The position numbers and the translations under genes are program-made. This document shows, in pieces, positions 13,787 to 30,664 of a DNA stretch of 64,000 nucleotides. Source of the DNA: Vicinamibacteria bacterium (GTDB lineage Bacteria; Acidobacteriota; Vicinamibacteria; Marinacidobacterales; Marinacidobacteraceae); assembly GCA_964291235.2 (NCBI GenBank), contig OZ219816.1, forward strand, positions 928,001 through 992,000. The letters are read 5' to 3'. The notes under the pieces were generated by a model. That model saw only the letters and a list, made by a program, of their open reading frames with translations. It was not told the DNA's origin and did not search any database. Numbering within the stretch: the stretch's first letter is position 1; each line of letters opens with the position of its first letter.

Positions 13787-13814
13787 TCCCGGGAACCGGG
13801 GGATCGCCGGAGAC

Positions 13815-14561: not shown

Positions 14562-14586
14562 AGCCACGGCCCGGCCGCCGGAACCG

Positions 14587-16857
14587 CTAACGCGACAGCT
14601 CCGTCCGAATCCTCTCCAGCAGGCTGACGGCATCCGGACCTGCCCGAAGTTCGACCGCCCGTTCGGCCCACGGCAGCGCCTCGGCCCACCGACCCTGCTG
14701 GGCGTGGAGGATGGCCAGCGCGTTCAGGAACGCCGGCGTGTCGGGTTCCGCGGAATCGGCCCGCCGCAGCGCTGCCTCCGCCTCCCTGGGGCGGCCGACG
14801 CGCTGGAGGGCGAGCCCGTGGTTGTAGTGGACCCGTGCCTGCTCGGGTAGCAGGGTGGCCGCGCGCTCCAGATGCCCGAGAGCGGCCTCGAGTTGGCCTC
14901 GCTCGGCCAGCAGGAGCCCCAGCGAATAGTGCGCGTCGCCGGCGTCGGGGGTTCTCGCCAGGGCGTTTTGGAGGGTGACCTCGGCTTCGGGAGTCCTTCC
15001 GAGCCGGCTTAGAAGTACGGCGAGGTTTCGACTCGCCGGCCAGAAGGCGGGATCGAGCGACAGAGACCGCCGGTAGTCGCGCAGGGCCCGCTCATGGTCG
15101 CCGGTCGCGGTGTGAAAGTTGCCGAGGCGGTAATGGGTGTCCGGGTGGTCCGCCCGCGCCGCGGCTGCCGCCTCGAACTCCACCCGCGCCGCGGCGAAAG
15201 CGGACTGAGCATCTCCGGCAAGTTGCGCGGCAGCGGGAGCGATTGCCTCGGCGGCCTCAACCCGGACGGCGCGGAGGGGATCACGCAGCAGGCGGGCCCC
15301 GACGCGGAGACGCCCGGCGGGCGGCAACGCGCCGAGGCCGGCGGCGGCCGCCATCCGGACGACGGGCTCGGCATCTTCGAAGGCCCCCGGCATCCGCGGC
15401 GCCCCGCCGGGTCCGTAGGCACTGAGGTACCGGAGCGCGGTGGCCCGGGCGATCGGCGGTTGCTCGTCGTCCCTGGCCACGACAATCAGGTCGTCCACGG
15501 CTCCCGGTCGGTCTTCGCGCGCGGCAGCGAACGCCTCTCCGTAGTGCGGCCCCCGGCGCCGGCCGGGGCCGTACCAGGCCGCGACCCTCTCCGCGGCCCA
15601 CTCCGGGCTCTCCCCCGCGTGGCACGTGGTGCAGGCGTCCGGGCTGCCGGTGACGGCCGACAGATCGGGACGCGGGATGCGGAAACTGTGATCCCGGCGC
15701 GGGTCCACCACCATGTAGGTGCGCTCCGGCATGTGGCAGTTCACGCACCGGGCGCCGTCGCTGCCCTCCGGATGGAAGTGATGCTCCGGGGAGTTGTAGG
15801 TCTTGCGGGTCAGCGTCGGGAACCGGTCGAGCGGCGCGTCCGGGTGGTGGCACTGCTCGCAGACCGCGTTCCCAAGGACGCGCAGGCCAAGACTGTGCGG
15901 GTTGTGACAGTCGCTGCAGCGCACCCCTTCGGCGAACATGCGGCTCTGCACAAACGATCCGTATTCGTACGCTTCCCCCAGGATCTGGCCATCGGCGTGG
16001 TAGAAGCCGGTGTCCAGCAGGGTGGGGCGGAATCGGTCGAAAAAGGTGTCGGCTGGAGAGGGCTCGCCGTGGATCGGCGACCTAAGCGAATGGCAGGCGG
16101 CGCACGACTCGACCTCGAAGGCGCTGTCGCCGTAGCGAACGCCCAGGCCGAGGTCTCCGGTGACCTCGGCAGCGGCGGGGCGGCGTTCGTCAGCCCATGC
16201 GAGGTGGCGCCCGCCGGGGCCGTGACAGGCCTGGCAGCCGACGTCGATCGCGTTCCAGGTCGTCCGGTAGGTCCGGGTCGCCGCGTCGTAGTTGACTTCG
16301 AGGTTCGTCGAATGGCAGTCGGCGCAGCCGGAGTTCCAGGTCTGGCGCCAACCGGTCCAGTGGAACGGATCGCCGGCCGGAATCGCTTCGTCGGGATAGA
16401 GGTGAAACCAGGCGCCCCGGACGGTGTCCCAGGCGATGCCGAGCGCCTGCAGGCGGCCGCCGGGGAGCGGAACCAGGTACTGCTGGAGCGGTTCGACTCC
16501 GAACGTGTAGCGGATCTCGAAATCCCCGGGCGTGCCGTCCGGTCCGTCGGTGTTGACGAAAAACCCCCCATCCCGCCGGAAGAAACGGGACTCCACCCCA
16601 AAGTGGTGGAAGGAAGCGTCGTCGAAGTCACCAAGCACGGTGTCCTCGGTGGCCTCCTGCATGGCCAGGTCGTGGTGGGATTCGAGCCAGTCGTCGTACT
16701 GCTGGAGATGGCAGCCACGGCAGCGTGAATCCTCGACGTACCCGGATCCCGCGAGCGCCGCTGGCGGGACTCCGGTCTTTGCCGAGAGGCCGGTCTCTTC
16801 GGAAACGGGACCCTCGCGGCCGCTCGAGAGCGGCCCGCACCCGGCCAGGAAAGCCAT
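14587..16857 (-). CDS. Octaheme c-type cytochrome with HEAT and TPR repeats, probable lipoprotein
   Basis: Eight CxxCH motifs (CRGCH, CADCH, CQACH, CAACH, CSDCH, CEQCH, CVNCH, CTTCH), lipobox-like FLAGC, C-terminal TPRs; start uncertain (about 16857-16930). Confidence 0.88.
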   Translation of the reverse strand: MAFLAGCGPLSSGREGPVSEETGLSAKTGVPPAALAGSGYVEDSRCRGCHLQQYDDWLESHHDLAMQEATEDTVLGDFDDASFHHFGVESRFFRRDGGFFVNTDGPDGTPGDFEIRYTFGVEPLQQYLVPLPGGRLQALGIAWDTVRGAWFHLYPDEAIPAGDPFHWTGWRQTWNSGCADCHSTNLEVNYDAATRTYRTTWNAIDVGCQACHGPGGRHLAWADERRPAAAEVTGDLGLGVRYGDSAFEVESCAACHSLRSPIHGEPSPADTFFDRFRPTLLDTGFYHADGQILGEAYEYGSFVQSRMFAEGVRCSDCHNPHSLGLRVLGNAVCEQCHHPDAPLDRFPTLTRKTYNSPEHHFHPEGSDGARCVNCHMPERTYMVVDPRRDHSFRIPRPDLSAVTGSPDACTTCHAGESPEWAAERVAAWYGPGRRRGPHYGEAFAAAREDRPGAVDDLIVVARDDEQPPIARATALRYLSAYGPGGAPRMPGAFEDAEPVVRMAAAAGLGALPPAGRLRVGARLLRDPLRAVRVEAAEAIAPAAAQLAGDAQSAFAAARVEFEAAAAARADHPDTHYRLGNFHTATGDHERALRDYRRSLSLDPAFWPASRNLAVLLSRLGRTPEAEVTLQNALARTPDAGDAHYSLGLLLAERGQLEAALGHLERAATLLPEQARVHYNHGLALQRVGRPREAEAALRRADSAEPDTPAFLNALAILHAQQGRWAEALPWAERAVELRAGPDAVSLLERIRTELSR

Positions 16858-16937
16858 GGCCACCGCGAAGCAGCGGAGGCGGCTTCCGGCTGGCGCCCGG
16901 CGGACCGGCGGCGCCGGCGCGGGTCCCAATGCGGGGA

Positions 16938-18053
16938 TCAGGGAGTGCCGGCGTGTTCCAGAGCCGTCTCGGCGAGGCGGCGCGCCGTTTCGGGCAGGCC
17001 GTCCGCGCTTTGGACGTTCGAGAACACGGCGACCGCGACCCCGCGCTCCGGAAGGCGCAGCAGTCGGGTGCTGCCCCCCGTGGCTCCTCCCGAGTGGGCG
17101 ACCCAGGTGCCCATGTCGTCCGTCGCGATGCGCCAACCAAGCGCGTATTCGCTCATGGTGCCGTCGGCGAGCTGATAGGGAGTCGTCATCCGGTCGTGGG
17201 TCGAGGCCGGGAGGATCGTTTCTGCGTCGATCGCGAGCGCGAAGCGGACCAGATCGGGCGCGGCGGCGATCATTCCACCGCCAGCCCACTTGATCGACAG
17301 GTCGGCAAACGGGGCGTTCAGCACGCCGGCGGCGTCCTCCCGTTTCACGTACTGGCGCACCCGGTTCGGGACGATGTCACCCTGGTGCTCCAGGTAGGTC
17401 GTTTCCATTCCGGCTGGCCCCCAGACGTTTTCCTGCATGTAGGCGTCGAAAGTCTGTCCCGAGACGTTCTCGACGATGCCGGCCACGATGTTCCAGGCGT
17501 AGGACGAATAGCTGTACTGCGTCCCGGGCTCGAAGAGGAGCGGGTCGTCCTTGAAGATCTCGATGGCGGCCTCGATGGTGTCGAAATGGTCCTTCATGTC
17601 CATCTCGCCCGGGTTGTAGTGACGGATTCCCGACGTGTGGGTCATGAGATGGCGGACGGTGATGGGAGACTCCTTCTCGGGGAAGGCCGGAAAGTAGGTC
17701 TGGACCTCGGCATCGAGGTCGACGGCGCCCTGCTCCACGAGCTGCATGAGCGCGACCCCCGCGACCGGCTTCGAAATGGAAGCGATCCGGTACACGCTCT
17801 CGGCGGTTGCCGGCACCGCGTTCTCGATGTCGGCCAGTCCCGAAGCGCCGCTCCAGACGAGCTCTCCGTTCACGGCGACCGCGGCGGAGAGACCGGGACT
17901 TCCGGCGGCGTCCCGGGCCTCCGCGACGATGGCGGCCAGTGTCTCTTCGAGGGTGGGTTCGGGGTCGGCCCCGCCGCACCCGCCGAACAGTGCGAAGACG
18001 ACAAGGGCGGCTGGCAGCCGCAGGTCAACTCTCTTGAAAGCCAGGCGGTTCAT
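16938..18053 (-). CDS. Serine hydrolase, beta-lactamase class C/S12 family lipoprotein
   Basis: SISK (SxxK), LMTHTSG, YSS and HSG motifs; lipobox FGGC. Confidence 0.92.
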   Translation of the reverse strand: MNRLAFKRVDLRLPAALVVFALFGGCGGADPEPTLEETLAAIVAEARDAAGSPGLSAAVAVNGELVWSGASGLADIENAVPATAESVYRIASISKPVAGVALMQLVEQGAVDLDAEVQTYFPAFPEKESPITVRHLMTHTSGIRHYNPGEMDMKDHFDTIEAAIEIFKDDPLLFEPGTQYSYSSYAWNIVAGIVENVSGQTFDAYMQENVWGPAGMETTYLEHQGDIVPNRVRQYVKREDAAGVLNAPFADLSIKWAGGGMIAAAPDLVRFALAIDAETILPASTHDRMTTPYQLADGTMSEYALGWRIATDDMGTWVAHSGGATGGSTRLLRLPERGVAVAVFSNVQSADGLPETARRLAETALEHAGTP

Positions 18054-18063
18054 GGCTTACCCC

Positions 18064-19173
18064 CTATGGATTGTCAGCGGGCAGGTGGGCGGTGGCCGCC
18101 TCCCACACCCGCTCGAAGTTGCCGCCGAGGATCGCCTCGACTGCATCGCTGTCAAAACCGGCTTCGGCGAGCGCTTCCGCAATCGCTTCGAAGTTGGCCT
18201 CTTCGCCGAACCCTTCACTGTAGGCCGACATGCCTCTCAGATCGCTCCCGATGCCCGCCGCGGTCATCCCTCCCGTATCCGTGACATGGCGGATGTGCCG
18301 CGCCATGTCGGAGACGGTGGGAACCTGGCTCCCGTTGGGCCAGATCCCGATCACCCCGCCGTCCGCAGCGATCGCGCGAATCTCGGGATCGCGGAGGTTC
18401 CGGTCGGCTTCGCCGAGCGCGAACGCTCCGGTGTGGCTGAAGATGACAGGAACCCGGGACAGCTCCAGGGTGTCCCGGATTGTCTCCGGATTGGCGTGGG
18501 CCAAGTCGATGACGATGCCGAGGCGGTTGCACTCGCGGACCACCTCGCGTCCGAACTCGGTGAGCCCCCCGGGGGTATAGGGCCAGGTCTGAATGTGCCC
18601 GATCCCGTTCGGCCGGAAGTGGACGAGCTGGGCCACGGCGAGTCCCATCTGATGCAGTTCGTGGAGCCGCTCGATCCTGCCCTCGAGGGAGTCCGATCCT
18701 TCGAGCGCCGGGAGGATCGCCAGCGCTCCGTCCGCCCGGGCCCGGCGCGCCTCGGCCGGGGTCCGGACGAAGACGGCGTTCCCCTCTCGGGCGGTCCGCG
18801 TCAGCCGCTCGAAGCGGTCGAGGGTGTATTCCCAGGGCTCTCCCGGATCGGGGCGGCGATTGCCGGACTCAATCCGGGTACCGTCGCGCAGGACGTAGCC
18901 ACCCCGGTATGGGGTATCGGTGCTGATGGTCGCCACCACGGCGTCCATGCCGCGGTCGAGGTAGCGGGCGATCTCCTCATCGCTGATCCGGGGCACGTTG
19001 GCCCGGTGAAAGCGGGACGGGTGGGAGTGGAGATCGATCCGGAGCGGGCCCTCCTGAGCGGCGGCGAGGCCGGCGGTGAGTGTGGGCGCGGCGAGGCAGA
19101 GTGCCGCGGCTCGCACCGCCGCCGGGAACGGGTGGCGTCTCCGGCAGCGTCCTCGCCGCGGTCCGGAGACCAC
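18064..19173 (-). CDS. Membrane dipeptidase (M19) family, exported
   Basis: DLHSH, LEG, GLTEFGREVVRECNRLGIVIDLAH, FSH, RNL.D, GIGSD; signal peptide. Confidence 0.9.
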   Translation of the reverse strand: MVSGPRRGRCRRRHPFPAAVRAAALCLAAPTLTAGLAAAQEGPLRIDLHSHPSRFHRANVPRISDEEIARYLDRGMDAVVATISTDTPYRGGYVLRDGTRIESGNRRPDPGEPWEYTLDRFERLTRTAREGNAVFVRTPAEARRARADGALAILPALEGSDSLEGRIERLHELHQMGLAVAQLVHFRPNGIGHIQTWPYTPGGLTEFGREVVRECNRLGIVIDLAHANPETIRDTLELSRVPVIFSHTGAFALGEADRNLRDPEIRAIAADGGVIGIWPNGSQVPTVSDMARHIRHVTDTGGMTAAGIGSDLRGMSAYSEGFGEEANFEAIAEALAEAGFDSDAVEAILGGNFERVWEAATAHLPADNP

Positions 19174-20562
19174 TTACTCCTGCTCGTCCGTCGTTTCCGT
19201 CGGCAGCACCACCCGGGCGACGCCGTCCCTGATTTCGAACTGCGTCCCGTAGGGTTCGGAGAGGCGCACCAGATCCTGCAGGATCTTGTCGGCGAGTTCG
19301 CCCTCCGCCATCATCGGCCGGCCGCGGACGTGGCGCGGCTGCCCGAATCCGAGGTCGATGGGGTGGAGCGTCAACTCGACCAGTTGCTGGCCGCTCCACT
19401 CCGGCACCGCGATGACGGCTTCCCAGATCTCGGGAATGGCCGGGAATCCGGTGGTGTCGTTGTTGTAACGCGCTTCGTTGAAGTCCGCGAGGCCGTCGTC
19501 CTCGCCCAGCCCGAGGCGGTGGTAGTTCTCGTAGGGCAGGCGCTGGAGCGTCTCGTTCTGGAACACGAAGTCGCCGAGGCTGTAGAGGATGGGCGCTCCC
19601 TTGTACATCTCGATGGCGCGCAGCGCGTGAGGGCCGTGCCCCACGAAGACCGAGGCGCCGGCGTCCACCATCGCCCGGGCGAAGGTCTCGAGGAACTGGG
19701 CGGGAACCATGCGGCTGTCGGGACCGGGGCGGCCCTCGTGCGCGTGGATCGTCACCATGACGTAATCGGCCTGGCGTTTGGCATTGCTGACGATCATGGC
19801 GATCTCCGCCATGTCCTCGGGGTGCGGCTCGGTACGGACTCCGGGCGCATCCGCCAGCTCGAACCGGTTGCGCAGGAAGTTCAGGCGGTCCCCCGACGCG
19901 GGCGGGTTCATCTTGAGATCGCGCATGGTCGCGCGGACGCCTTCGAGCTGTTCCCTGGTGACCTCGTAGGTGCGGATGTGCCGCAGCGGACTCAACCCCG
20001 GCCGCGGCGGGATGTCGTCACGCGACTTGCCGGCCATCGAATGGTCGGGGAAGGTCGAGGCAAGCGAAATCATCGCCACCCGGCCGTCCTTGGTCTCGAT
20101 GAATTTGGCCTCCCGGGCCTCGGCGAGGCTGCGTCCCACGCCCGCGGCGACGATGCCGGCTTCCCGGATGTACTGCTCGGTGAGCAGCATGGCCGGTGGT
20201 CCGTAATCCCCGGAGTGGTTGTTGGCCAGCGATCCGACATCGATCCCGGCCCACACGAACTCCTTGACCAGTTCCGGCTGGGCCCGCATGTAGGTGCCGC
20301 CGCTGGAACTCATCGGGTAGGACTCCCAGTCGTGGAAGAGGACTTCCACGTTGGTGAACGCCAGGTCGGCGCCCCGCAGGAGATCGATCATCCGCAGGAA
20401 CTGAGGCTCCTCGTAAACACTCAGCTTCCGGGTGATGATCGAATCACCCGTCAGCGCCATGGTGAAGCGGTCCTGGGCGAGCGACTCGGTTGCGAGTCCG
20501 GCGGTCAGGGCCCCGGCGATCAGGGCCGGCAGGAGTCGGGAAGTTCTTGTCTGGTGGGGCAT
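19174..20562 (-). CDS. CapA/PgsA (poly-gamma-glutamate synthesis protein A-like) metallophosphatase-fold protein, exported
   Basis: TGD, NVE, LANNHSGDYG, IHAHE, GHGPH, YSLGDFVFQ; signal peptide from MPHQTR. Confidence 0.9.
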   Translation of the reverse strand: MPHQTRTSRLLPALIAGALTAGLATESLAQDRFTMALTGDSIITRKLSVYEEPQFLRMIDLLRGADLAFTNVEVLFHDWESYPMSSSGGTYMRAQPELVKEFVWAGIDVGSLANNHSGDYGPPAMLLTEQYIREAGIVAAGVGRSLAEAREAKFIETKDGRVAMISLASTFPDHSMAGKSRDDIPPRPGLSPLRHIRTYEVTREQLEGVRATMRDLKMNPPASGDRLNFLRNRFELADAPGVRTEPHPEDMAEIAMIVSNAKRQADYVMVTIHAHEGRPGPDSRMVPAQFLETFARAMVDAGASVFVGHGPHALRAIEMYKGAPILYSLGDFVFQNETLQRLPYENYHRLGLGEDDGLADFNEARYNNDTTGFPAIPEIWEAVIAVPEWSGQQLVELTLHPIDLGFGQPRHVRGRPMMAEGELADKILQDLVRLSEPYGTQFEIRDGVARVVLPTETTDEQE

Positions 20563-20641
20563 AAACGCGATCCTCCGCAGGACCTGCGAGTATGGCAGAA
20601 AGGAAAACCCGCGCGGAAACGCCGACCCCATCGGCGGGCTG

Positions 20642-21424
20642 CTAGCCGGGAGTTTTCATACTCAGGGCCCAAGGTGTCGCGCAGATCACGCCAATCTGTT
20701 GATGATGTCGGGAGACACACACCGGGGGCGGGCCGCAGGCCCGCGTCGGCGCCGACCCCACCCGCCGGCATGGTTCCCGTCTCCGCCCGTACCCCACTCG
20801 GCGCGGTGGCCCGGTTCTCCTATCGCCAAGTGGCCCAGTGCTGGATGTCGCTTGACACCCACGCAACCAGGACCGGCGTGACGCCTTCGTGCGTGTGCGA
20901 CATCACGGCTCGTGGGGTTCCCGCCGAGGGGGACCATCCTGACGCTGGGGGTTCCATCCCGCCGCCCCGCTTCGTGGGGTGGTGCCGGTCTGGAGGTCGG
21001 CATGGTGGCGCGCAGGCACGGGAACGCCGACCTCCAGGTCGGCACAGCGGGCCGGCAGGCCCGCGTCGGCGAAGACCCCACCCGTCGGTATGGCTCCCGT
21101 CTCCGCCCGTACCCCACTCGGCGCGGTGGCCCGGTTTCTCTGTCGCAAATTGGCCTGGTGCTGATGTCGCTGGACACCCACGCAACCAGGACCGGCGTGA
21201 CGCCTTCGGCGTGTGCGGCATCACGGCTGGTGGGGTTCCCGCCGAGAGGGGACCACCCTGACGCTGGGGGTTCCATCCCGCCGCCCGCCGGTGGCGGGCT
21301 GTGCCGGCCTGGAGGCCGGCGTTCCCGTGCCTTTACGACATCAACGCCGGGGGGCGCCGTCCCGCCGAGAGGGGAACCATCCGGCGTCGATCTCTGCGGC
21401 GGCCGGATGAGGAATCCCGGCTAG
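20642..21424. mobile_element. ~780-bp non-autonomous element: terminal inverted repeats enclosing a ~320-bp tandem duplication and REP-like hairpins
   Basis: Left CTAGCCGGGAGTTTTCAT versus reverse complement of right end CTAGCCGGGATTCCTCAT (15/18); internal near-identical units starting at about 20728 and 21048; hairpin A at about 21016-21047 (+) and 21298-21331 (-). Confidence 0.7.
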
Positions 21425-22860
21425 CGGCGGTAATCCAGCGGTGGCGGCCGGTCGCCCAGCAGCGGCTCGTACATGAAGTCCGGACCGCGCGCGGCGTTCA
21501 GTTCCTCCTGTGCCGCCGTCAGGTGCGACGGGTCCAGGAACAGGTCGGCGGCGGTGCGCGCAAGGACCTGGGCAGCGAGGTGCATGCCCTTGAGTCCGAT
21601 GCTCATCCCACCACTGGCCACCGCCATCCAACTGTGCGACGGGGTCCCCGGAACATAGGTCGCGGTCCGGAACTGCGCGGTGGGCACCACCCAGCTCACG
21701 TCGGCCACGTCGGTGGAGCCTCCTGCGGGGGTCCGCCGCCATTCCATGACTTCTTCCTGCGATCCGATGGGGCGCGGTTGCTGGAGATGCTTCTGGAGTT
21801 CCTCCGCGAAGGCCCGTTCCTCTTCGGTATAGGCGAAGCCGCCGATGGCCTTCATATTGTCGAAGAGGAGGCGACCGATGTGCTCGTTGGGGAGCAGGTT
21901 GTAGATCCCGTGGATCATCTCGTGCTCCACTTCGGTTCCGGTCCCGAGCGCCGCTGCGTCGGCGGCCTTCAGGATCCGCTCCCAGTTGGCGCGGGCGGTT
22001 TCCACCGAGGGGTGCCGGTTGTAGTAATAGACCTCGGCGAAGTTCGGAACCACGTTCGGGGCCTCGCCGCCCCGGGTGATGACGTAGTGGATCCGGCTGC
22101 GCTCGTGGACGTGCTCGCGCATCAGGTTCACCATGAAGTTCATGGCCTCCACGGCGTCGAGCGCCGAACGGCCCTGGTCCGGAGCGCCGGCGGCGTGGGC
22201 GGAAACACCCCGGAAGCGGAACTTGGCGGACAGGTTGGCGAGCGAATCGCCCGGACTCGCGTCATTGCGGTCCCCGGGGTGCCAGGCGAGCACCGCGGCC
22301 ACATCGGCGAAGAGGCCCCCGCGGACCATGTACACCTTCCCGGCGCCGCCTTCCTCGGCGGGGGTGCCGTACACCCGGATCCGGCCCGGGGTTCCCGAGC
22401 GTTCGAGCCAGTCCTTGATCGCCAACCCGGCCGCCACCGAAGCGGTGCCGAAGAGGTGGTGCCCGCAGGCGTGCGCGGCGCCGACGCCCTCCCGCTCCAT
22501 CGGTTCCGGAACCGCCGCCTGGCTCACTCCCGGCAGCGCGTCGAACTCGGCGAGGATGCCGATCACCGGGCCCTCGGACCCCCATTCGGCGACAAAGCCG
22601 GTCGGCATTCCGGCGACCCCGGCGTCCACGGTGAAACCGCCGGCGGTGAGCTGTTCCTGAAGGAGTGCCGAACTCTGTTCCTCCTGATAGCCGACTTCCG
22701 CCCAGTCCCAGATCCGCAGCGCCACCTCCTCGAAGTCGGTGCGCTGGGCGTTCAGAAACTGGGTGACGATGGTGGCGGCGTCCGCGTCCTGGGCGGCTGC
22801 CTGGGACGGGAGCAAGAGGGCGGGTAGCACGGTCAGAAGCAACAAATGGCGGACTCGCAT
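21421..22860 (-). CDS. M20 amidohydrolase, AbgB-like, with signal peptide
   Basis: AEFDALPG, HACGHHLFG, GTPAEEGG, WHPG, GRSALDAVE, GSTDVADVSW. Confidence 0.92.
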   Translation of the reverse strand: MRVRHLLLLTVLPALLLPSQAAAQDADAATIVTQFLNAQRTDFEEVALRIWDWAEVGYQEEQSSALLQEQLTAGGFTVDAGVAGMPTGFVAEWGSEGPVIGILAEFDALPGVSQAAVPEPMEREGVGAAHACGHHLFGTASVAAGLAIKDWLERSGTPGRIRVYGTPAEEGGAGKVYMVRGGLFADVAAVLAWHPGDRNDASPGDSLANLSAKFRFRGVSAHAAGAPDQGRSALDAVEAMNFMVNLMREHVHERSRIHYVITRGGEAPNVVPNFAEVYYYNRHPSVETARANWERILKAADAAALGTGTEVEHEMIHGIYNLLPNEHIGRLLFDNMKAIGGFAYTEEERAFAEELQKHLQQPRPIGSQEEVMEWRRTPAGGSTDVADVSWVVPTAQFRTATYVPGTPSHSWMAVASGGMSIGLKGMHLAAQVLARTAADLFLDPSHLTAAQEELNAARGPDFMYEPLLGDRPPPLDYRR

Positions 22861-22970
22861 CGAGGGGCCTCCTGGTCAGTGGATGGGGTGTCGGACCGGG
22901 TTTCGAGTGTACCCGGAGGTGGACGTTGCCCGGCTGTACGGACGGGTGGCCGCCGCGTTACAGTGGCGAC

Positions 22971-23960
22971 ATGGCAATCGCAAGGATCCAGTCGGTCGTC
23001 ACGGCGGTGCTCGTCCTCTTGCTCGCCGCCACCGGACAGGCTGAAGACGAGAGGAAGAGGCAGGAAGAGGAGGGTGACGCCGGCCGGGTTGGGGCAGGTG
23101 TTCAGAAGTGGTTCGCCCAGCTCCCCGAAATGGACCTTGCGTCCAGGTCGCGAAAGCCCGCGGCGCTGGCGGCGGGCGCCGCTCAAGGGTTCTCCGGACC
23201 GTCCGGGATGCGAGTCGAACTGTTTGGCCGGGCCGGACTCTCGCTGCTGAACGTCACCGCGGAAGATTCGATCGGGATCGCCGGCGGGCCGGAGGGCTTC
23301 GGAGAATCCCTTAGCGCTACCCGGCTCGTTTCCGAAGTCGGCTGGGGCGGCGGAGCGCGCCTCATGTCGGGGAACTGGGGGGTGGAAGGCACCTACAGCA
23401 TCTTCGAGAGCTTGGCGCTTTCCCCCTCATGGCTCGTCATTGATGACAACGCGGGGTCGGAAGTCCAGACCGGAGTGCTCGATCAACCGTTCGTGCCTTC
23501 CCGCGGGTCCGTCCTGCTGGGCCAGGTGATTCGTACGTTCCGCTTCTCGAACAGCGCGGAACTCTCCGTAGGTCTCGGCGCCGGCTGGTTGCGCGCCACC
23601 GATTCGAGCACGGACCGCCTGCTGTCCGGAGGGCCGACTCGGGATGCGCAGCAACAGCTCGTGGAGGACATCTCCATCGAAATCCCGCCGGCCTTCATCC
23701 CCGAGGTGGAGTTCACCGCCGACCGGACATCGGTCGTCTATGCGGGCTCCCTTGGTCTTGCGTTTCGGCTCGGCCGGATGCTGCTCCGCCCTCGCGCCGA
23801 CGTCATCATCTCGAAGGCCCTGACGACCGAGCTGACCGTCGGTTTTCCGGACCTTGGCGAGTTGACCCCCGAGGATGCGGGGAGTTTCGAACTCAGCTAC
23901 GGCACCAGCGTCAAGCCCACCATCTTCCTGATCTCGTTGGACATCGGGCTCTCGAACTGA
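22971..23960 (+). CDS. Exported beta-barrel-like outer-membrane protein, paralog 1
   Basis: Signal peptide; alternating amphipathic strands ELFGRAGL, GWGGGARLM, WGVEGTY, VYAGSLGL, PTIFLISLDIG; fold is inferred. Confidence 0.7.
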   Translation: MAIARIQSVVTAVLVLLLAATGQAEDERKRQEEEGDAGRVGAGVQKWFAQLPEMDLASRSRKPAALAAGAAQGFSGPSGMRVELFGRAGLSLLNVTAEDSIGIAGGPEGFGESLSATRLVSEVGWGGGARLMSGNWGVEGTYSIFESLALSPSWLVIDDNAGSEVQTGVLDQPFVPSRGSVLLGQVIRTFRFSNSAELSVGLGAGWLRATDSSTDRLLSGGPTRDAQQQLVEDISIEIPPAFIPEVEFTADRTSVVYAGSLGLAFRLGRMLLRPRADVIISKALTTELTVGFPDLGELTPEDAGSFELSYGTSVKPTIFLISLDIGLSN

Positions 23961-24107
23961 TCCGCGTCGAGGAGCGCCGAAGGGGACCGCTGATCGGTCC
24001 GTCAACCAAGGTTCCTTGGCCAGTTCGGTATCGGAAGGGCAGGGGCAAACCCGTCGAGTCCGGCACTTGCGGGAGCGGACTGCGCCTGTCAATCTTCATA
24101 TGACTCA

Positions 24108-25178
24108 ATGACCGTTTCTTCACGTTGTTTACTGTTGGTGGTTGTGGCACTGGCCGCGTTCTCGCCTCTCGTCGCCGCTGGAGACGACGGTCCGAAGAAG
24201 GCTGGTGCGCGCGGGACTCCGGCCCCGGCCGGGAAGCCCTTCGGTGACGGCGAGGGAACGTCCTGGGAGGCGGCGGTCCTCTTGCGTGGGGCCTTGGCCG
24301 GGCTCCGTTCACCTGGGGAGTTCATCGCGGGCTCCAGCCATCGGGGGTTCCCTGACCTTACGAGAAGGCATCAGACCGCGGCGTCGGAAGGCACCCTCGT
24401 TTTGCCGACGGCTGTCGCCCAGGGATCTCCCGGATCCTCCGGGATTCAGGTCGAACTCTTCGGCCGCGCCGGTTTGGCGCTCCTGAATGCGTCGGCCGAG
24501 GACTCGCTCGGACTCGCGGCCGGGATCCCGGGAGCTGTGGAGCCGCTGTACGGTTCGCAACGCCTCTCCGAGTTCGGTTGGGGAGGAGGGGCACGGCTCA
24601 TGTGGGGCGACTGGGGCGTCGAAGGGACATACAGCACCCTCGATAGCCTCGCGCTCTCTCCCGGGTGGCTCTTTTTCGACGAAGCGGTGGTGGTTTCCGG
24701 GACTCCGGAAGCGTTCTTTCCCATGGTTGCCTCCCGGGCAAATGTCTTTCTCGGACAGGTCGTAAGGACCTTTCCGCTGTCAAACTCGACGGAGTGGTTC
24801 GTCGGTTTGGGTGGTGGCTGGATGCGGGCCGCCGACACCGACGACCTGTTCGTGGTGACACCGATGCCCAATGACCTGGACGACTATCCGACGGGGCTGC
24901 CCGCTGATTCCTTCGCGGGACTTGTTCCGGAGGTGGAGCTGACCGCCGATCGGAGTTCCGTTGTCTATGCCGGCTCCGTCGGTCTCCTGTTCCGGCGCGG
25001 ACGGGTTGTCTTCCGCCCGCGGGTGGACATCATCATCGCCCGCGCGCTGACGACCGAACTGACGGTTGGCTTTGACCTGCCGGACGTTGAAGAAGTTGAC
25101 GGCGTCGACTTCGTCTATACCAGCAGCGTCACTCCGACGATCTTTCTCGTCTCGGTCGACATCGGCCTCTCGAACTGA
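24108..25178 (+). CDS. Exported beta-barrel-like protein, paralog 2
   Basis: Same motifs as paralog 1 and identical DIGLSN C-terminus; signal peptide. Confidence 0.7.
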   Translation: MTVSSRCLLLVVVALAAFSPLVAAGDDGPKKAGARGTPAPAGKPFGDGEGTSWEAAVLLRGALAGLRSPGEFIAGSSHRGFPDLTRRHQTAASEGTLVLPTAVAQGSPGSSGIQVELFGRAGLALLNASAEDSLGLAAGIPGAVEPLYGSQRLSEFGWGGGARLMWGDWGVEGTYSTLDSLALSPGWLFFDEAVVVSGTPEAFFPMVASRANVFLGQVVRTFPLSNSTEWFVGLGGGWMRAADTDDLFVVTPMPNDLDDYPTGLPADSFAGLVPEVELTADRSSVVYAGSVGLLFRRGRVVFRPRVDIIIARALTTELTVGFDLPDVEEVDGVDFVYTSSVTPTIFLVSVDIGLSN

Positions 25179-25213
25179 TCCGATGCGACGCGCCCGGCGG
25201 CGCCTCGCTTCGG

Positions 25214-25480
25214 ATGACCGAGGGTGACTTCCGGGCGGATCGCGGTGTGGCGGTGCTGGGCGGTTCGCTGGGCCTCACGCTGAAAATGGCGCGGATGTTC
25301 CTGCGCCCTCGGCTTGACGCCTTCCTCGGCGGGGCGCGGACTACGGAGGAGAGTTGGGGCATGGACTTCGACCCTCCCGGGGCACAGGGTCAGACCGCGA
25401 GCACCATGACGCTCGACACGACCATGCGGCCGAGGGTTTTCCTCTTCAGCGTGGAAGTCGGTTGGTTGTCTCGACCGTAG
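25214..25480 (+). pseudogene. 3' fragment of a third beta-barrel paralog
   Basis: FRADRGVAVLGGSLGL..MFLRPRLD..RPRVFLFSVEVGW aligns with the last three strands of the other paralogs; no signal peptide or N-terminal half. Confidence 0.65.
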
Positions 25481-25549
25481 CTCCGTTCCCGGTTCCCACG
25501 CGGTGATCGGCCGTCCTGGGTTTGGCGTCGCCGGGAGGAGGCGACCCGG

Positions 25550-25939
25550 TCAGTGGCCCCAGACAGTCTCCACGTCCGGACAACCGAGAAGCCGCGCGTC
25601 GGCGGTGATGAGCCGCAGTCCGAAGACCTTGGCGGTGGCGACGATGAATCGGTCGGCCGGGTCTTCATGGTCCAGGCGAAGCTGCCGGCTGGCCGCCGCA
25701 ACCTCAAAGGTTAACGGAGCCTCGCGCACCGAGCGCGCCGCATCCCGGAGCCACGCTCGTGGGTTGGGGGACAGGGTGATGCGACCCTTCTCGGCGAGAA
25801 GGAGGGCTTCCCAGAGACTGATCGGCGACAGTCGCGGCGGTTCGGACGCCGTTTCGAGCTCTTCCCTGATCGACGACGGGAGCCGAAGCGGCTCGCCGAT
25901 GCCCCAGATCCAGACGTGGGTGTCCAGGAGGAAGGCCAC
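25550..25939 (-). CDS. vapC: Type II toxin, PIN domain (VapC family)
   Basis: LLDTHVWIW, SPISLWE, HEDPADRFIVATA, LITAD. Confidence 0.93.
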   Translation of the reverse strand: MAFLLDTHVWIWGIGEPLRLPSSIREELETASEPPRLSPISLWEALLLAEKGRITLSPNPRAWLRDAARSVREAPLTFEVAAASRQLRLDHEDPADRFIVATAKVFGLRLITADARLLGCPDVETVWGH

Positions 25940-26176
25940 TTAGCGGAGGGCTTCCCAGTCGGACGGCTCCGAAACCGGTGCGACGATGTCGCCGTGGATC
26001 GTGACGGACCCCTTCATCGAGCCGAGCCAGCTTCCGGCCGAACTCGGGGCGGGAGGGACGATTCTCGCGATCGGCTTGCCTCGCCGGGTCACCAGGACCG
26101 GTTCCCGGGTCTGGGCAACCCGGTCCAGGACCGCGAGGCAGGTGGCTTTGAACTTCGAGATTTGAATCCGCCGCAT
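25940..26176 (-). CDS. Type II antitoxin, Phd/YefM family
   Basis: ISKFKATCLAVLDRV...PVLVTRRGKPIARIVP; directly abuts the toxin gene. Confidence 0.93.
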   Translation of the reverse strand: MRRIQISKFKATCLAVLDRVAQTREPVLVTRRGKPIARIVPPAPSSAGSWLGSMKGSVTIHGDIVAPVSEPSDWEALR

Positions 26177-26182
26177 AGACCT

Positions 26183-26215
26183 ATCCTACTATGGTCAACA
26201 ACCATGGTCCAATAG
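26183..26215 (-). promoter_or_regulatory. Toxin-antitoxin promoter/operator
   Basis: TAGGAT 6 nt before the ATG; repeated GACCAT half-sites and an ACCATGGT palindrome. Confidence 0.55.
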
Positions 26216-26279
26216 GAGGTAACCGAGTTGACCCGGAATCTGCTCGGTCCACGCCCACGTTACCGGTGGGCGGAGCGAA

Positions 26280-27179
26280 CTATCTGCGGGTGGACCAGCC
26301 GGCTTCCACGCTGAAGAGGACGAAGAGCGGACGTACGGAGACTTCGACCGACTCCGTGCCGAGATCAACCCACTGGCGGCCAGCGTCCGGGACGTCGAAC
26401 TCGCCAGCCACGTCCCAGCTTGCCGCGGTTTGGCGCGTTCGGCCGAGCAGCACGCCAACCCGCGGCCGAACGAAGAACCGCCCGCTCCCCACCGTGATTC
26501 CCGCGGACCCCGCTACCACGAACGAGGACCGACCAGTCTGCTCTTGCTGGAGCGCAATACGGTTCGAAAGACTCTGCTGAAGACGCGGTTCGACTTCGGC
26601 CGCGTAGAAATCGGTAAGCAGGATCTCCTCCCGCCGGCTCGCGTCCACGGTCGGAAATCGGAGATAGCCGCCCCCGAATCCAATAAAGAGTTGGGCGCCG
26701 CCGGTCGTGATCGGGAAGCGAAAGATGCCCTGGGCGATCAGTAGATCCTCGGGTTCTCCACCCGGCGCCAGCCCCCGTAACGGGTCGAGAGCTGACTCCT
26801 GGATCAGACTGCCGGGTTGGAATGCGCCGGTCGGGATCCGTAAGTACTGCGTCTCGAAGCCCCAGCGCCCACGCATCGCGCGGAAGCCGGCTCCCCACGC
26901 CGCCTCCCGGTTGGACCGCGACGCCTCCGTGAGAAACGTCAACTCATAGGGAGCCGGGGCGTCCAGAACCGTCCCGATCCAGGCCACTTCGCCGTTGGCC
27001 GGGACGGTGGCAAGCCCTCCCCGCGCAAACACCTCGAAATCCCACGCCGGACGCGTTCCCGGTGCGACCCCCTCGGCAGTGAGAGATTCGTCCCCACGTC
27101 GGTCCTTCCGCTCGGGGGCCATTCCGAGCGCCAAGGAGGAAACCCCGAGGAACGCGGAGAGGAGCAGTACGAAGTGCAT
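26280..27179 (-). CDS. Exported beta-barrel-like protein, paralog 4 (divergent, opposite strand)
   Basis: EVFARGGL, AWGAGFRAM.G.WGFETQY, GRSSFVVAGSAGI, FVRPRVG, RPLFVLFSVEAGW; signal peptide. Confidence 0.68.
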   Translation of the reverse strand: MHFVLLLSAFLGVSSLALGMAPERKDRRGDESLTAEGVAPGTRPAWDFEVFARGGLATVPANGEVAWIGTVLDAPAPYELTFLTEASRSNREAAWGAGFRAMRGRWGFETQYLRIPTGAFQPGSLIQESALDPLRGLAPGGEPEDLLIAQGIFRFPITTGGAQLFIGFGGGYLRFPTVDASRREEILLTDFYAAEVEPRLQQSLSNRIALQQEQTGRSSFVVAGSAGITVGSGRFFVRPRVGVLLGRTRQTAASWDVAGEFDVPDAGRQWVDLGTESVEVSVRPLFVLFSVEAGWSTRR

Positions 27180-27253
27180 GGGATCGCCTCCGGCCGGAGC
27201 CTTCGCATCCTAACGCCCGAAAACCCGCTTGGGCGAATGCGACGCCCAGCGTA

Positions 27254-27290
27254 CAAACAAAAGGCGCCGGCCCGTGAGGGCCGGCGCCTT
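27254..27290 (-). terminator. Rho-independent terminator of the TonB receptor gene
   Basis: 13-bp stem AAGGCGCCGGCCC/GGGCCGGCGCCTT with a 4-nt loop, followed by a T-rich tract on the minus strand. Confidence 0.85.
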
Positions 27291-27310
27291 GAAGGTGCTT
27301 GAGGGGTCGC

Positions 27311-30300
27311 CTAGAAGCGGAGGGTCCCCCGGAGGAGCATGGTACGGGCGTTCTGCCGGCTCCGGAGCTCCAGGAAGGCGGCCTTCCACGTCCGGTTCGC
27401 GCCGCTATACGTGAACTGGTTGTGGTTTGCCGCGTCGAGCAGGTTGAACGCCTGGGCTTGGATCTCGAACTGGGCGGGGCCGAGATCGAGGATCTTGCCG
27501 AGCGATAGGCCCACCGTGTGGACGGTCGGCGCCGCCACCTGAAGTTCACCCCGGTCCGCGCCGACGATGCGGTAGCGCGTCGCCAGCGGGTTCGAGAAGT
27601 CGTTGTTGGCGCTGCCCGGGCCGTACTGGGTGACCTGCGGGTCATCGGCGCTGAGGCGGTTGATCGGCGGTCCGGACCACGGCCCGGCATTCGCCGTGTA
27701 GCTCACCGCCAGGGTCACGTCGTATGGCATCAGGTAACTCATGCCGCCCCGGACCGAGAACTGTCGCCAGGTCGGCGCGTAGGACAGCGCGCTGGAGTCA
27801 CGCAGCGTGTCGTGCTCGTTGTTGCCGCGCGGCATGTAGAGCGCCTTGCTGGAGTTGAACTTCTCCGGCTGGATGAAGTACGCCGGATCGGTCGGGTTCC
27901 AGTCGCCGGCGAAGCCCTGCCACTGCCGGCTGATGTTCAGCGTGGCCGACATCCGCTCGGTGCGGCGGGTGGTGGTGATCTCGAGGGCGGTGTACACCAG
28001 CTTGCTCCAACTGTTGTTGGTCTGCTGCATGATGTCGCCGTACCCGACGTCCACCGCGCCGTACTGGAACTGGCCCAGCGGCGTGGGCGCGGGCGAGGAG
28101 GACGGGTAGAACCCGTTCTGCTCGAGCAGCGCGTAGTTGTTCGTGTAGCGGCGGTGCACCAGCGCCACGTCCATGGCGAACTGGCCCTGGAACTGGCGGC
28201 GCAGGCCGACGATCGCCTCGTCCACGAAGGGCTGGCCGATATCCGTGTCGAACAGGTATTCCCGGGGGATGCCCTCGGAAGGCGGTGTATAGCGTGAGAA
28301 GTCCGCCACGCCGTCTCCATCATGATCCCACTCTCTGTAGCTGCCGACCGACGATGCCCCGTGGACCCGGGTGATGTTGTCCCGCCCGTTCATCTGCTCG
28401 TGGACCCGGCCGATATTGCCTCGCAGGATGTTGCGGCCGTCCTCGGTGAGCTGGTACGCAAACCCGGCGCGCGGGCCGAGCGCCAGCGTGTTCATCCGGT
28501 CAAAGTTCTGGATGTTGTCGTAGCGCTTCACGAAGTCGGCGCGGACGCCGAGGTTCAGGGTGAGGCGCTCCACCGGCTTCCAGGAATCCTGGAGATAGAC
28601 ACCGATGTCGCTGTCCTGCGCGTCGATGGTCTTGAGGGTATCGATGGGACCGCTGGCATCCCCGGTACGGCTGCGCGTGAACCAACGCGTGCCGACTGCC
28701 ATCGTGGGATCGGTGGTCGGGTTTCCGTTCGCGTCCACGATCGTGTGGTTTTCCGAATTCCAGCCCGTCTCGGTCGCATAGATCGTAGTGCTCGGGTAGG
28801 TGTTCCACGGAGCGGCGTAAACGCCGAAGCCGATTTCGTGCGAGCCGCCGGCGTTGTCCAGGTAATGCGTCATGTCGGCGCGCAGGAGGGCCAGACGGGC
28901 CGGGCGATCCGAGCCGCCCCCGGTGCCGAGCGCGGCGATGCGGCCGCCACCGCTGGTCGTGCCGGAGTCATTCACCGAGTACCCGGCCTCGATCGTGATG
29001 AAAACCGGGAGGCTGTCCAACTGTGGCTGGATCTCGCGCGGCACCTGGGATGCCTTGTCGTTGTACGAGAACGTGAACTGCCCGGTCGTGGAGGCGCCGA
29101 ACACCGACGTCAGCTTGGCGCCATAGAGGTTGCCGCCGGTCTGCACGGTGAAGCGCGGCGCGAGGTCGTACTCGCGGTTCGAGGTGTTCTCGGTGGTGTC
29201 GCGCTGGAAATAGACGTTCAGTTCATGGCTGCCGCTCAATTGCGCACTCACCTTGGCGTAGGGCTGATGGCTCCGAGTCGTGTTCGTGAACTCGCTATAC
29301 ACGGGCGTGCTGCCGAGTCCGCCGCCGATCGGGATTCCGGACAGGTTCGTCAGCCGCTCGATGTCGGTGGAGCCCCGGCTGATCCGGGCCGCCAAGTCGG
29401 CGTACCGGTAGGCCGCAAAGAACCAGGCCTTGTCGCGCATGATCGGGCCGCCGAGCGAAAAGTCGGACTGCCGGACCTGGTGGGCGGTCGGGGTGCCGGC
29501 CGCCGCATCGCGGCCCTCGGGCGGGTCGTACACGCCGAGCGCCTGGAAGTTCGCCTTCTCCGACGCAAACGGGTTGAACCCGCTCGGAAGCTCGTTGTCC
29601 CCAAAGAAGCCGCCGGAACCGGCCTCGTCGCCGGTGCCCCAGTCGAAGTCCTGGAGGTCGTAGGCCGCCGACCCGGTGATGTCGTTACCGCCGCTCCGGG
29701 TTACCACGTTGATGATCAGACCGGTCCCCATCGGGTCCTTGGCCTCGGCGCCGCCGGTCTTCACCGACATGTCCTGCATCATGTCGGCGTTCATTCCGAC
29801 ATAAGTGACCTGCGAATCGGTGTAGCCGGCCGCCGCCATGCCCTCGAGCTGGATCACGTGGGCGAAGTGCTCGGTCGCGTGACCGAAATACACCATGCGC
29901 CCCGACCCATCGTCGAAGGGACGGGCGTTGACGCCCGGGGTCATCTCGAGGAAGTCGCTCCAGTTGCCGCGGGCCTGGATGGGCAGGTCGCGCTGGAGGT
30001 CGCCCTCGATCGTCAGGATGTTTCCTGGGCGCGAGATTTCGAGCATCGGGGTCTCGGCGGTGACCGTGACCGTCTCCTGGACGGTGCTGATCGACATCGC
30101 CGGGTCCACCCCGATGTTCGTGCTGGCGCGCACGAGGATTCCTTCTTGCCGGTAGGTCGCAAAACCGGAAAGCGAGGCTTCCACGGTGTAATCGCCCACT
30201 GGCAGGTTGAGCAGCCGATAGCCGCCCTGACCGTCCGTCACCGTGGTGGCGGGGCTGATGAGCGCCGGGCTCATCGCGGTGACCGTGACTCCTGGAAGCA

Positions 30301-30418
30301 CGGCGCCCGAGTCATCGGTGACCGTGCCGCGAATACTGGAGTCGCCGCCCTGTCCGAACGCGATGGCCGGAAGGACGAGGGACGCCGCGAGAAGCAGCGC
30401 GAAAGTTGACTTCCGCAT
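27311..30418 (-). CDS. TonB-dependent receptor with N-terminal carboxypeptidase-regulatory-like domain (Oar-type)
   Basis: Signal peptide, GTVTDDSGAVLPGVTVT, INVVTRSGGN, YLQDSWK..RLTLNLGVR, terminal Phe; GAGGAGG RBS. Confidence 0.93.
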   Translation of the reverse strand: MRKSTFALLLAASLVLPAIAFGQGGDSSIRGTVTDDSGAVLPGVTVTAMSPALISPATTVTDGQGGYRLLNLPVGDYTVEASLSGFATYRQEGILVRASTNIGVDPAMSISTVQETVTVTAETPMLEISRPGNILTIEGDLQRDLPIQARGNWSDFLEMTPGVNARPFDDGSGRMVYFGHATEHFAHVIQLEGMAAAGYTDSQVTYVGMNADMMQDMSVKTGGAEAKDPMGTGLIINVVTRSGGNDITGSAAYDLQDFDWGTGDEAGSGGFFGDNELPSGFNPFASEKANFQALGVYDPPEGRDAAAGTPTAHQVRQSDFSLGGPIMRDKAWFFAAYRYADLAARISRGSTDIERLTNLSGIPIGGGLGSTPVYSEFTNTTRSHQPYAKVSAQLSGSHELNVYFQRDTTENTSNREYDLAPRFTVQTGGNLYGAKLTSVFGASTTGQFTFSYNDKASQVPREIQPQLDSLPVFITIEAGYSVNDSGTTSGGGRIAALGTGGGSDRPARLALLRADMTHYLDNAGGSHEIGFGVYAAPWNTYPSTTIYATETGWNSENHTIVDANGNPTTDPTMAVGTRWFTRSRTGDASGPIDTLKTIDAQDSDIGVYLQDSWKPVERLTLNLGVRADFVKRYDNIQNFDRMNTLALGPRAGFAYQLTEDGRNILRGNIGRVHEQMNGRDNITRVHGASSVGSYREWDHDGDGVADFSRYTPPSEGIPREYLFDTDIGQPFVDEAIVGLRRQFQGQFAMDVALVHRRYTNNYALLEQNGFYPSSSPAPTPLGQFQYGAVDVGYGDIMQQTNNSWSKLVYTALEITTTRRTERMSATLNISRQWQGFAGDWNPTDPAYFIQPEKFNSSKALYMPRGNNEHDTLRDSSALSYAPTWRQFSVRGGMSYLMPYDVTLAVSYTANAGPWSGPPINRLSADDPQVTQYGPGSANNDFSNPLATRYRIVGADRGELQVAAPTVHTVGLSLGKILDLGPAQFEIQAQAFNLLDAANHNQFTYSGANRTWKAAFLELRSRQNARTMLLRGTLRF

Positions 30419-30503
30419 GGTTCCTCCTCTGCGAGGTGTCTGAGATTTCTTGGGACGCGGACCGACCGGTATCGCTGCCGCGAGGTTGGTAGCGCGAAAA
30501 TAG

Positions 30504-30518
30504 GCAACGATTATGCCA
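30504..30518 (-). promoter_or_regulatory. sigma54 (-24/-12) promoter candidate for the TonB receptor
   Basis: TGGCAT-AATCG-TTGC on the minus strand versus consensus TGGCAC-N5-TTGC. Confidence 0.65.
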
Positions 30519-30664
30519 TGCCTGTGCGCAGGAACGAACACCTTCTCCAAGGATTCGGTTTTTCTTCCATTTACGTTCCCACGGGAACTCTCCCGAACGA
30601 TTCCGGTGTCCAACGAACCGAACGGCACGGTTGGAATCTTGGAGCGGCGATGCGGCGGGATGCC

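Follow-up and report, generated by a model that had tools for sequence, protein, structure and literature searches.

A lineage-restricted family of predicted eight-stranded outer-membrane barrels beside a toxin-antitoxin pair in a Vicinamibacteria genome

Several small eight-stranded beta-barrels of the bacterial outer membrane are well described. The lumen of OmpA, OmpX and NspA is packed with a network of charged residues, whereas OmpW encloses a hydrophobic tunnel; the catalytic sites of PagL and PagP need a His (with Ser, Glu or Asp). A textbook substrate of the beta-barrel assembly machinery (BAM) carries a C-terminal beta-signal with a terminal aromatic residue. Here we examine a group of related genes, denoted A, B, C and D, that flank a Phd/YefM-PIN toxin-antitoxin (TA) pair in a stretch of 64,000 nucleotides (the window) from a Vicinamibacteria bacterium (assembly GCA_964291235.2, contig OZ219816.1, positions 928,001 to 992,000). 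An earlier reading of the letters alone, the original prediction, had taken them for a diversifying surface locus of an unrecognised barrel family. We report their paralogy, taxonomic range, synteny and predicted fold, and the rate difference between loops and strands.

Structure models of B and D suggest that the full-length genes A, B and D encode small outer-membrane barrels of eight strands. We describe the family as uncatalogued and lineage-restricted, and as belonging to the well-known class of small outer-membrane barrels. Its members in the window, in window coordinates, are as follows.

22971-23960, plus strand: predicted barrel gene A, an open reading frame (ORF) of 329 amino acids from the ATG at 22971; A-type; divergent from the M20 peptidase gene.
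24108-25178, plus strand: predicted barrel gene B, an ORF of 356 amino acids; a second A-type gene, of a different sublineage from A.
25214-25480, plus strand: fragment C, 88 codons; corresponds to strands 6-8, the C-terminal third, of a C-type paralog; no signal peptide.
26280-27179, minus strand: predicted barrel gene D, 299 amino acids; D-type; convergent on A, B and C, and downstream of a TonB-dependent-like barrel gene.

All four ORFs lie at the coordinates and on the strands first given for them, and their shared motifs fall in register in a MAFFT alignment, in which B, C and D are 49%, 38% and 29% identical to A. Three elements are invariant across the four sequences: R..V..GS.G, RPR and a C-terminal P...L.S...G. 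The motif P..FL.S, also attributed to all of them, holds for A, B and C but not for D, which has PLFVLFS. The C-termini (GLSN in A and B, WLSRP in C, WSTRR in D) read as originally predicted, and tblastn E-values between the paralogs are far below chance (A-B 1e-75, A-D 1e-14, C-D 4e-11). We read A, B, D and the piece C as true paralogs flanking the Phd/PIN pair. The start of A is ambiguous: a TTG at 22926 gives 344 amino acids, as in the database copy P0001, and the signal-peptide-like stretch begins at the ATG at 22971. Judged by eye, the N-termini of A, B and D have a hydrophobic signal-like stretch with an Ala-rich end, helical in the models of B and D, and a lipobox Cys is absent from the expected place in all three.

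For fold prediction we used two alignments, one of 59 sequences with B at its head and one of 52 with D, and built AlphaFold2 (AF2) models of these two paralogs. The B model has a mean predicted local distance difference test (pLDDT) score of 74.6 and a predicted template-modelling (pTM) score of 0.65, with low confidence limited to residues 20-107; from residue 110 onward most 10-residue blocks score above 75 and many above 90. The D model has a mean pLDDT of 83.4 and a pTM of 0.71. Each shows eight long antiparallel strands forming a closed transmembrane barrel. Protein B is laid out as a signal-peptide-like N-terminus, a low-confidence tail of about 85 residues and an eight-stranded barrel at residues 113-355, with strands at 113-136, 147-166, 169-180, 209-223, 228-241, 274-297, 300-322 (with a bulge) and 333-355. 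Its periplasmic turns measure 2-4 residues, and loops L1 and L4 about 10 residues; the long loops L2 (181-208) and L3 (242-273) both contain short helices.

Both models were compared with 48,161 PDB representatives by VIA, a scan independent of Foldseek, and for both the top rows were eight-stranded outer-membrane barrels. NspA scored Z 19.3 with B and 18.2 with D (152/155 residues aligned, root-mean-square deviation 2.8-3.0), the Legionella 'porin III' (9nh2) 19.0 and 18.3, and OmpW 18.3 and 18.2 (174-178 of 183 residues aligned). The transmembrane domain of OmpA (OmpA-TM), the N-terminal domain of OprF (OprF-N), Thermus TtoA, PagL and a designed eight-strand transmembrane barrel followed at Z 16-18, and soluble barrels (avidins, YceI, lipocalin-like lobes and designed barrels) at Z 8 to 12.8. 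With Foldseek, the best match of B was OprG (E 3.6e-7, TM-score 0.54 on the target). Identity between the family proteins and these structural matches is 10-16%. The small eight-stranded barrel originally proposed is thus what the AF2 models and the VIA rankings agree on, and structure prediction followed by Foldseek, the check suggested at the time, gave a barrel as well.

The membrane character of the barrel was assessed from strand residue parity in B against the 59-sequence alignment. On every strand the outer face consists of V, L, I, F, W or Y, and Trp and Tyr residues (W158, W166, W169, Y175) lie close to the periplasmic rim, so that the alternating pattern, the hydrophobic lipid-facing belt and the aromatic girdle can all be recognised. 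The conserved residues of the inner face are E116, F118, R120, G122, G159, G161, R163, G170, E172, Q217, G233/235/237, R282, S284, S290, G292, R303, R305, D307, S349, D351 and G353. This parity suggests a lumen packed with a conserved, Gly-rich charged network (Arg/Glu/Asp/Gln/Gly). Because the conserved lumen-facing residues are Arg, Glu, Asp and Gly, the barrel is probably closed, like those of OmpA-TM, OmpX and NspA, rather than an OmpW-like channel.

We consider it likely that the proteins are closed eight-stranded outer-membrane anchors which expose L2, L3 and extended strands on the outside of the cell and have a disordered periplasmic tail. A, B and D would be exported by a signal peptide and inserted into the outer membrane by BAM; behind the signal peptide would come some 25-85 disordered, charged residues as a periplasmic tail, and then the eight-stranded transmembrane barrel. 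A lumen filled by the Arg/Glu/Asp/Gln/Gly network would keep the barrel closed, and the barrel would serve as a membrane anchor displaying the two long loops and the extended strands. It may have an adhesin, receptor or structural role. The array, situated between the genes for the M20 peptidase and the TonB-dependent-like barrel, would evolve by gene birth and death, and in this genome the second A-type gene, B, would have replaced the first two-thirds of a C-type gene, leaving fragment C as a dead remnant.

Several observations weigh against this proposal. At E<=1 none of the proteins A-D has a match in Pfam or NCBIfam, and when all PDB sequences were searched with a profile the only match, to a dehydrogenase (E 0.48), was a chance one. 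Two sequence leads do favour it: 5 of 52 relatives match PF13505 (OMP_b-brl) weakly (best E 4.6e-5), and in the ESM Atlas the nearest clusters with a name are OMP_b-brl, Opacity and OmpA_like. As none of the four window proteins matches PF13505 even at E<=1, let alone at its gathering score, classification of the family rests on predicted structure and sub-threshold matches. The closed lumen follows from residue parity and not from a measurement on coordinates, and OmpW, a channel, stands within 1 Z unit of NspA in the VIA ranking. As for insertion, a terminal F, W or Y is found in 0 of 143 family sequences of at least 240 amino acids, so that the missing terminal aromatic residue noticed at the outset in the window proteins extends to the entire family. 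The sequences finish in N (83), R (40), P (13), S (4) or G (3); A-type proteins end in ...[VI]G[LF][SG]N and C- and D-types in ...GW[SA].R[RP]. An aromatic residue occurs among the last six positions in 56 of the 143, and the last lipid-facing residue (L or W) stands 2-4 residues ahead of the C-terminus. Since there is no terminal aromatic residue, recognition by BAM would need a signal placed 2-4 residues in from the end. The neighbouring 1105-residue barrel of the same genome, unlike the family, ends in a canonical ...LRF. Finally, the ratio of nonsynonymous to synonymous substitution rates (dN/dS) of fragment C against its orthologs is 0.15-0.38, no higher than among intact copies, so the comparison does not demonstrate decay of the fragment; the truncation may be recent, or 88 codons may give the test too little power.

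It is possible, though in our judgment unlikely, that the barrels are instead channels of the OmpW/OprG/AlkL type for small hydrophobic compounds or amino acids, which might serve the neighbouring secreted peptidases and the TonB-dependent-like transporter. OmpW is aligned almost over its full length, AlkL and CarO also appear in the VIA lists, OprG is the best Foldseek match, and M20, M19 and S9 peptidase genes as well as the TonB-dependent-like barrel gene lie nearby, with a barrel gene beside M20 in all ten genus loci and in five of eight loci from other genera. The conserved lumen positions, however, are charged or Gly (E116, R120, R163, E172, R303, R305, D307 and D351, by parity), neither the window proteins nor their relatives match PF03922, and synteny over such short evolutionary distances is weak evidence for a shared function.

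The family of these putative closed anchors has a narrow range. The word-indexed searches gave 73 relatives for A and 23 for D; those with a name are 'hypothetical' proteins from metagenome-assembled genomes of Acidobacteria. An exhaustive profile search of 1.84 billion cluster representatives returned 57 matches, all of them the family itself, with no bridge to any named family. The labels 'unannotated' and 'unrecognised' given to it beforehand were thus apt, and a narrow literature search on eight-stranded outer-membrane beta-barrels in Acidobacteria, which covered its sources in part, did not find the family. Among 40 relatives screened, it was found in all 24 genomes of the same taxonomic family and in none of the 16 that belong to two other families of the order. 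In 300 genomes sampled across the phylum, with 7 candidates scored per genome, there was one marginal match (E 8.5e-4). In the genomes searched, we did not find these proteins beyond one taxonomic family. Genomes that have them give 1-5 matches each, in line with the variable copy number expected from the start, and TGA stops interrupt two of the copies. No family copies besides A, B, C and D occur in the genome of the window, which is 90% complete (3.45 Mb in 2 contigs). In some genomes of the genus, another and more divergent copy lies elsewhere (G010:C124, G012:C57, G014:C1:1896577 and G001:C17:3018766, in our own labels for genomes and contigs; E 1e-35 to 1e-41), one with a TGA stop; no such copy is present in the window's genome.

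The remaining features of the locus are these.

21421-22860, minus strand: M20 peptidase gene (PF01546 and PF07687), with a signal-peptide-like N-terminus; the conserved divergent neighbour of the barrel gene.
25550-25939, minus strand: PIN-domain (VapC-like) toxin gene, 129 amino acids (PF01850, E 3.5e-14).
25940-26176, minus strand: Phd/YefM-type antitoxin gene, 78 amino acids (PF02604, E 6.5e-10; TIGR01552, E 7e-9).
27261-27290, minus strand: terminator-like hairpin between the TonB-dependent-like gene and D, found by pattern scan; 13 pairs, 11 of them G-C, then a T-rich tail.
27311-30628, minus strand: gene for a CarboxypepD_reg/OMP_b-brl_4 TonB-dependent-receptor-like barrel (Pfam), 1105 amino acids, C-terminus ...LRF.

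The hairpin suggests that D is transcribed on its own; it is a consensus match only, from a scan that found 5 sites against 3.5 expected in shuffled sequence. A sigma-70 promoter scan returned 0 sites, and an Rfam scan of 20500-27400 gave no match.

We compared the locus with ten loci from ten genomes of the genus, using the fetched stretches. The recurrent order is M20 peptidase, A-type gene, C-type gene, a gap, D-type gene and TonB-dependent-like barrel. An A-type gene is divergent from the M20 gene in all ten loci, and in eight it is followed by a full-length C-type gene; the stretches fetched from G009 and G014 did not show one. In five of the ten, the TonB-dependent-like barrel gene has a convergent D-type gene beside it; G004 and G008 have the large barrel without D, and in the fetched stretches of G001, G009 and G014 neither was seen. 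A barrel gene also lies beside M20 in five of eight loci from other genera (five of six genomes). The ancestral state was probably a single barrel gene beside M20. The locus of the genus reads as an old array of three paralog types, A, C and D. In a quick maximum-likelihood tree of 139 domains, which carries a long-branch warning, these three types form separate clades with SH-aLRT support of 99-100. B joins P0067 (68% identity) within a 44-row clade (SH-aLRT 97) that includes the first-position genes of G002, G003, G005, G010, G011 and G014. A falls in another A-type group, which has weaker support (80-93), alongside a group with the first-position genes of G001, G004, G008 and G009. Among 11 loci inspected, the window's is the only one with both A sublineages in tandem, and the synonymous divergence (dS) between the barrels of A and B, 1.2, marks the two as old duplicates, not recent ones.

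Fragment C is 64-78% identical to the last 88 residues of the full-length C-type genes in eight relatives, and its ATG corresponds to an internal Met codon in seven of these eight intact copies (Val in G004). Homology to the full-length relatives begins at about 25187-25213, right behind the stop codon of B, and from 25213 on the DNA is colinear with G002 (77% over 2.1 kb) through the TA pair and D. Given this start of homology and this colinearity, we read C as the remnant of a resident C-type gene, with the first roughly 200 codons missing; B occupies the place of that gene's first two-thirds. The fourth family member originally claimed does share the motifs, but belongs, as a remnant, to a third paralog type, of which 8 of 10 relatives have a full-length copy. 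Broken copies occur at this locus in a second case: behind the C-type gene of G001 (L026, 6062-7893) come a DUF4143/AAA_14 ATPase gene, the C-terminal part of an A-type gene (67% identity to residues 218-329 of A) and a piece similar to the N-terminal tail of B. When 29 large ORFs from variable gaps and flanks of related loci were scanned against Pfam, nothing emerged that explains the gaps; matches were confined to the DUF4143/AAA_14 gene, a sigma factor, a matrixin-like ORF, a desaturase and a weak bactofilin.

The Phd/YefM-PIN pair originally described between the genes is there on the minus strand. The two genes abut at 25939/25940, with the Phd stop codon next to the PIN start, and as adjacent small genes with matching antitoxin and toxin domains they form, by sequence, a plain type II TA pair. 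Elsewhere in the genome we found one PIN paralog (42% identical) and two partial Phd paralogs. Within the genus the pair is intact in 1 of the 10 loci, that of G002, at the same site and with a PIN ortholog 81% identical; Phd-only remnants lie at the loci of G010, G005 and G008, and no TA genes were detected in the C-D gap of G003, G011 and G004, even at E<=1. The convergent gap of the other genomes holds 0.5-4.6 kb of unrelated DNA. G003 and G011 have no TA pair, yet their A, C and D genes are all intact, whereas the window has the pair and a truncated C. Because loci without the pair are intact and the locus that bears it here has a truncated gene, the pair looks like an accessory element that came by chance into the convergent gap and does no work in the locus. 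Its distribution among relatives also leads us to reject the pair as a stabiliser of deletion-prone DNA, the part first assigned to it: its presence does not track integrity. Short Phd-like fragments lie near the barrel/M20 locus in other genera too (L032 of G018, 6399-6485; L034 of G024, 10262-10372), 70-83% identical over 29-37 residues. An antitoxin gene seems to have been at or near the locus repeatedly, or for a long time.

The stretch 11714-22860 encodes likely secreted peptide-degrading enzymes (an S9 prolyl oligopeptidase, a beta-lactamase-family protein, an M19 dipeptidase, PGA_cap and M20), and within this peptidase run, at 14587-17289, lies the gene of a 900-residue multihaem cytochrome/tetratricopeptide-repeat protein; the block from the beta-lactamase-family gene to M20 is conserved in other genera as well. 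The gap between PGA_cap and M20 measures 790 bp in the window and about 30-270 bp in relatives, and at 20728-21320 it contains a 319-bp unit repeated 1.9 times (also at about 50932-51158). A part of this unit, some 115 nt long, is a dispersed repeat with 155 matches in the genome, often in tandem arrays of about 120-bp period, and no Rfam match.

The loops of the barrel are more variable than its strands, as had been claimed. In the 59-sequence alignment the commonest residue of a column has a mean frequency of 0.64 over the 156 strand columns and 0.63 over the 8 turn columns, and of 0.36, 0.49, 0.47 and 0.38 in L1 to L4; the N-terminal tail, where gaps make up 50%, reaches 0.23. L2 and L3 nevertheless begin with well-conserved stretches (F.SLALSPGWL and RATDSSTDRLLSG, respectively). 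Pairwise Nei-Gojobori (NG86) estimates for 12 A-type genes (66 pairs, dS being saturated, above 1, in many of the distant ones) gave a dN/dS of 0.12-0.36 for the barrel and 0.16-0.78 for the loops. Among the seven pairs with a barrel dS below 0.25, loop dN/dS exceeds that of the barrel in six and is never above 1. In L1, which comprises only 10 codons, dN exceeds dS in 7 of 10 close pairs. L3 of G004 is 42-46% identical to that of G001 and G008 and its adjoining strands 94-97%; it looks like a swapped segment. No homopolymer of at least 7 bases and no short repeat of at least 4 copies occurs in 22700-27400. The 'diversifying' locus originally proposed is supported in part: the loops are faster, but dN/dS never exceeds 1, L2 and L3 are partly conserved and slippage tracts are missing. 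From the comparisons made we would call the genes fast-evolving and their loops more variable; the rates do not demonstrate positive selection, and phase-variation machinery is not present. Ortholog identity is 54-66% for A, 87-95% for PGA_cap and M20 and 69-90% for the TonB-dependent-like gene, so that the barrel genes evolve far faster than their neighbours, which fits surface exposure, for instance to phages, predators or a host.

One could go further than a surface-displaying anchor and suppose family-specific, fast-evolving surface receptors under phage or host pressure, with entire gene types, namely the two A sublineages, and L3 segments swapped between species by recombination at a conserved chromosomal slot, and with a non-canonical assembly signal that does without a terminal aromatic residue. 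We hold this extended version to be unlikely.

A programmed surface-variation locus, in which C would serve as a silent cassette rewriting expressed genes, or phase variation would operate, and the TA pair would hold a deletion-prone array, seems very improbable to us. Tandem and convergent paralogs, a fragment lacking a start and a signal peptide, faster-evolving loops, the mosaic look of L3 in G004 and the excess of dN in L1 would suit it. Yet the locus has none of the repeats named above, as a protein C shares only 33-40% identity with A, B and D and the genome has no full-length C-type recipient, the A-B dS of 1.2 speaks against recent gene conversion, and the TA pair is intact in 1 of 10 relatives while loci without it are intact. 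On the missing recipient and the low identity we reject C as a silent cassette. There is likewise very little probability, as we see it, that the proteins are soluble periplasmic or secreted eight-stranded barrels of the lipocalin, YceI or avidin type. Soluble barrels do occur in the VIA lists, and a missing C-terminal aromatic residue is unusual for a BAM substrate, but the Z scores of membrane barrels lie 4-7 units above theirs, with almost full-length alignment, every strand has a hydrophobic face with Trp and Tyr near the periplasmic rim, and the sub-threshold matches are to OMP_b-brl. Least credible of all are outer-membrane enzymes that remodel lipid A in the manner of PagL or PagP, which appear in the VIA lists (PagL Z 16.6/16.5, PagP Z 8.6) but whose Pfam families are not matched and whose essential His has no counterpart, no His being invariant or at least 90% conserved in the 59 aligned sequences.

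Closed surface-displaying anchors remain the reading we favour. It gives names to genes of an uncultured acidobacterial group that have so far been 'hypothetical', and a C-terminus that is conserved but never aromatic, beside a canonical Phe-ending barrel, offers a natural test case for recognition by the assembly machinery. The locus is otherwise an ordinary one, with old paralogs, one possibly recent truncation and an apparently incidental TA insertion.

Among described systems, the TA pair resembles VapBC-like type II pairs with a Phd/YefM-type antitoxin, in which the PIN toxin gene lies directly behind and abutting that of the Phd-family antitoxin; nothing about it is unusual, and it is variably present at this site among relatives. 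From PagL and PagP the barrel family differs in having no conserved His in 59 sequences. With the neisserial Opa proteins (PF02462) it shares multi-copy eight-stranded barrels with variable surface loops (Opa60, Z 10.0; Opacity is an ESM Atlas neighbour). Unlike Opa genes, those of the family have no coding repeats for phase variation, a loop dN/dS below 1 and no PF02462 match, and its paralog types are old, syntenic and unshuffled (A-B barrel dS 1.2). OmpW, OprG and AlkL (PF03922) have the same strand number and a long barrel, but the lumen residues of the family are charged, not hydrophobic, by parity, and PF03922 is not matched. The closest systems are NspA, OmpX, Ail and OmpA-TM (clan MBB, PF13505). 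From these the family differs by its disordered N-terminal tail of 25-85 residues, by short helices in L2 and L3, by its lack of a terminal aromatic residue, by the absence of a Pfam-threshold match for the window proteins, and by its occurrence in a single taxonomic family. It resembles them in the models by an up-down eight-strand barrel with short periplasmic turns, longer outer loops and strands reaching beyond the membrane, by a lumen that parity suggests is polar or charged, by Z scores of 19.3/18.2 with NspA and 17-18 with OmpA-TM and OprF-N, and by the weak PF13505 matches of 5 of 52 relatives.

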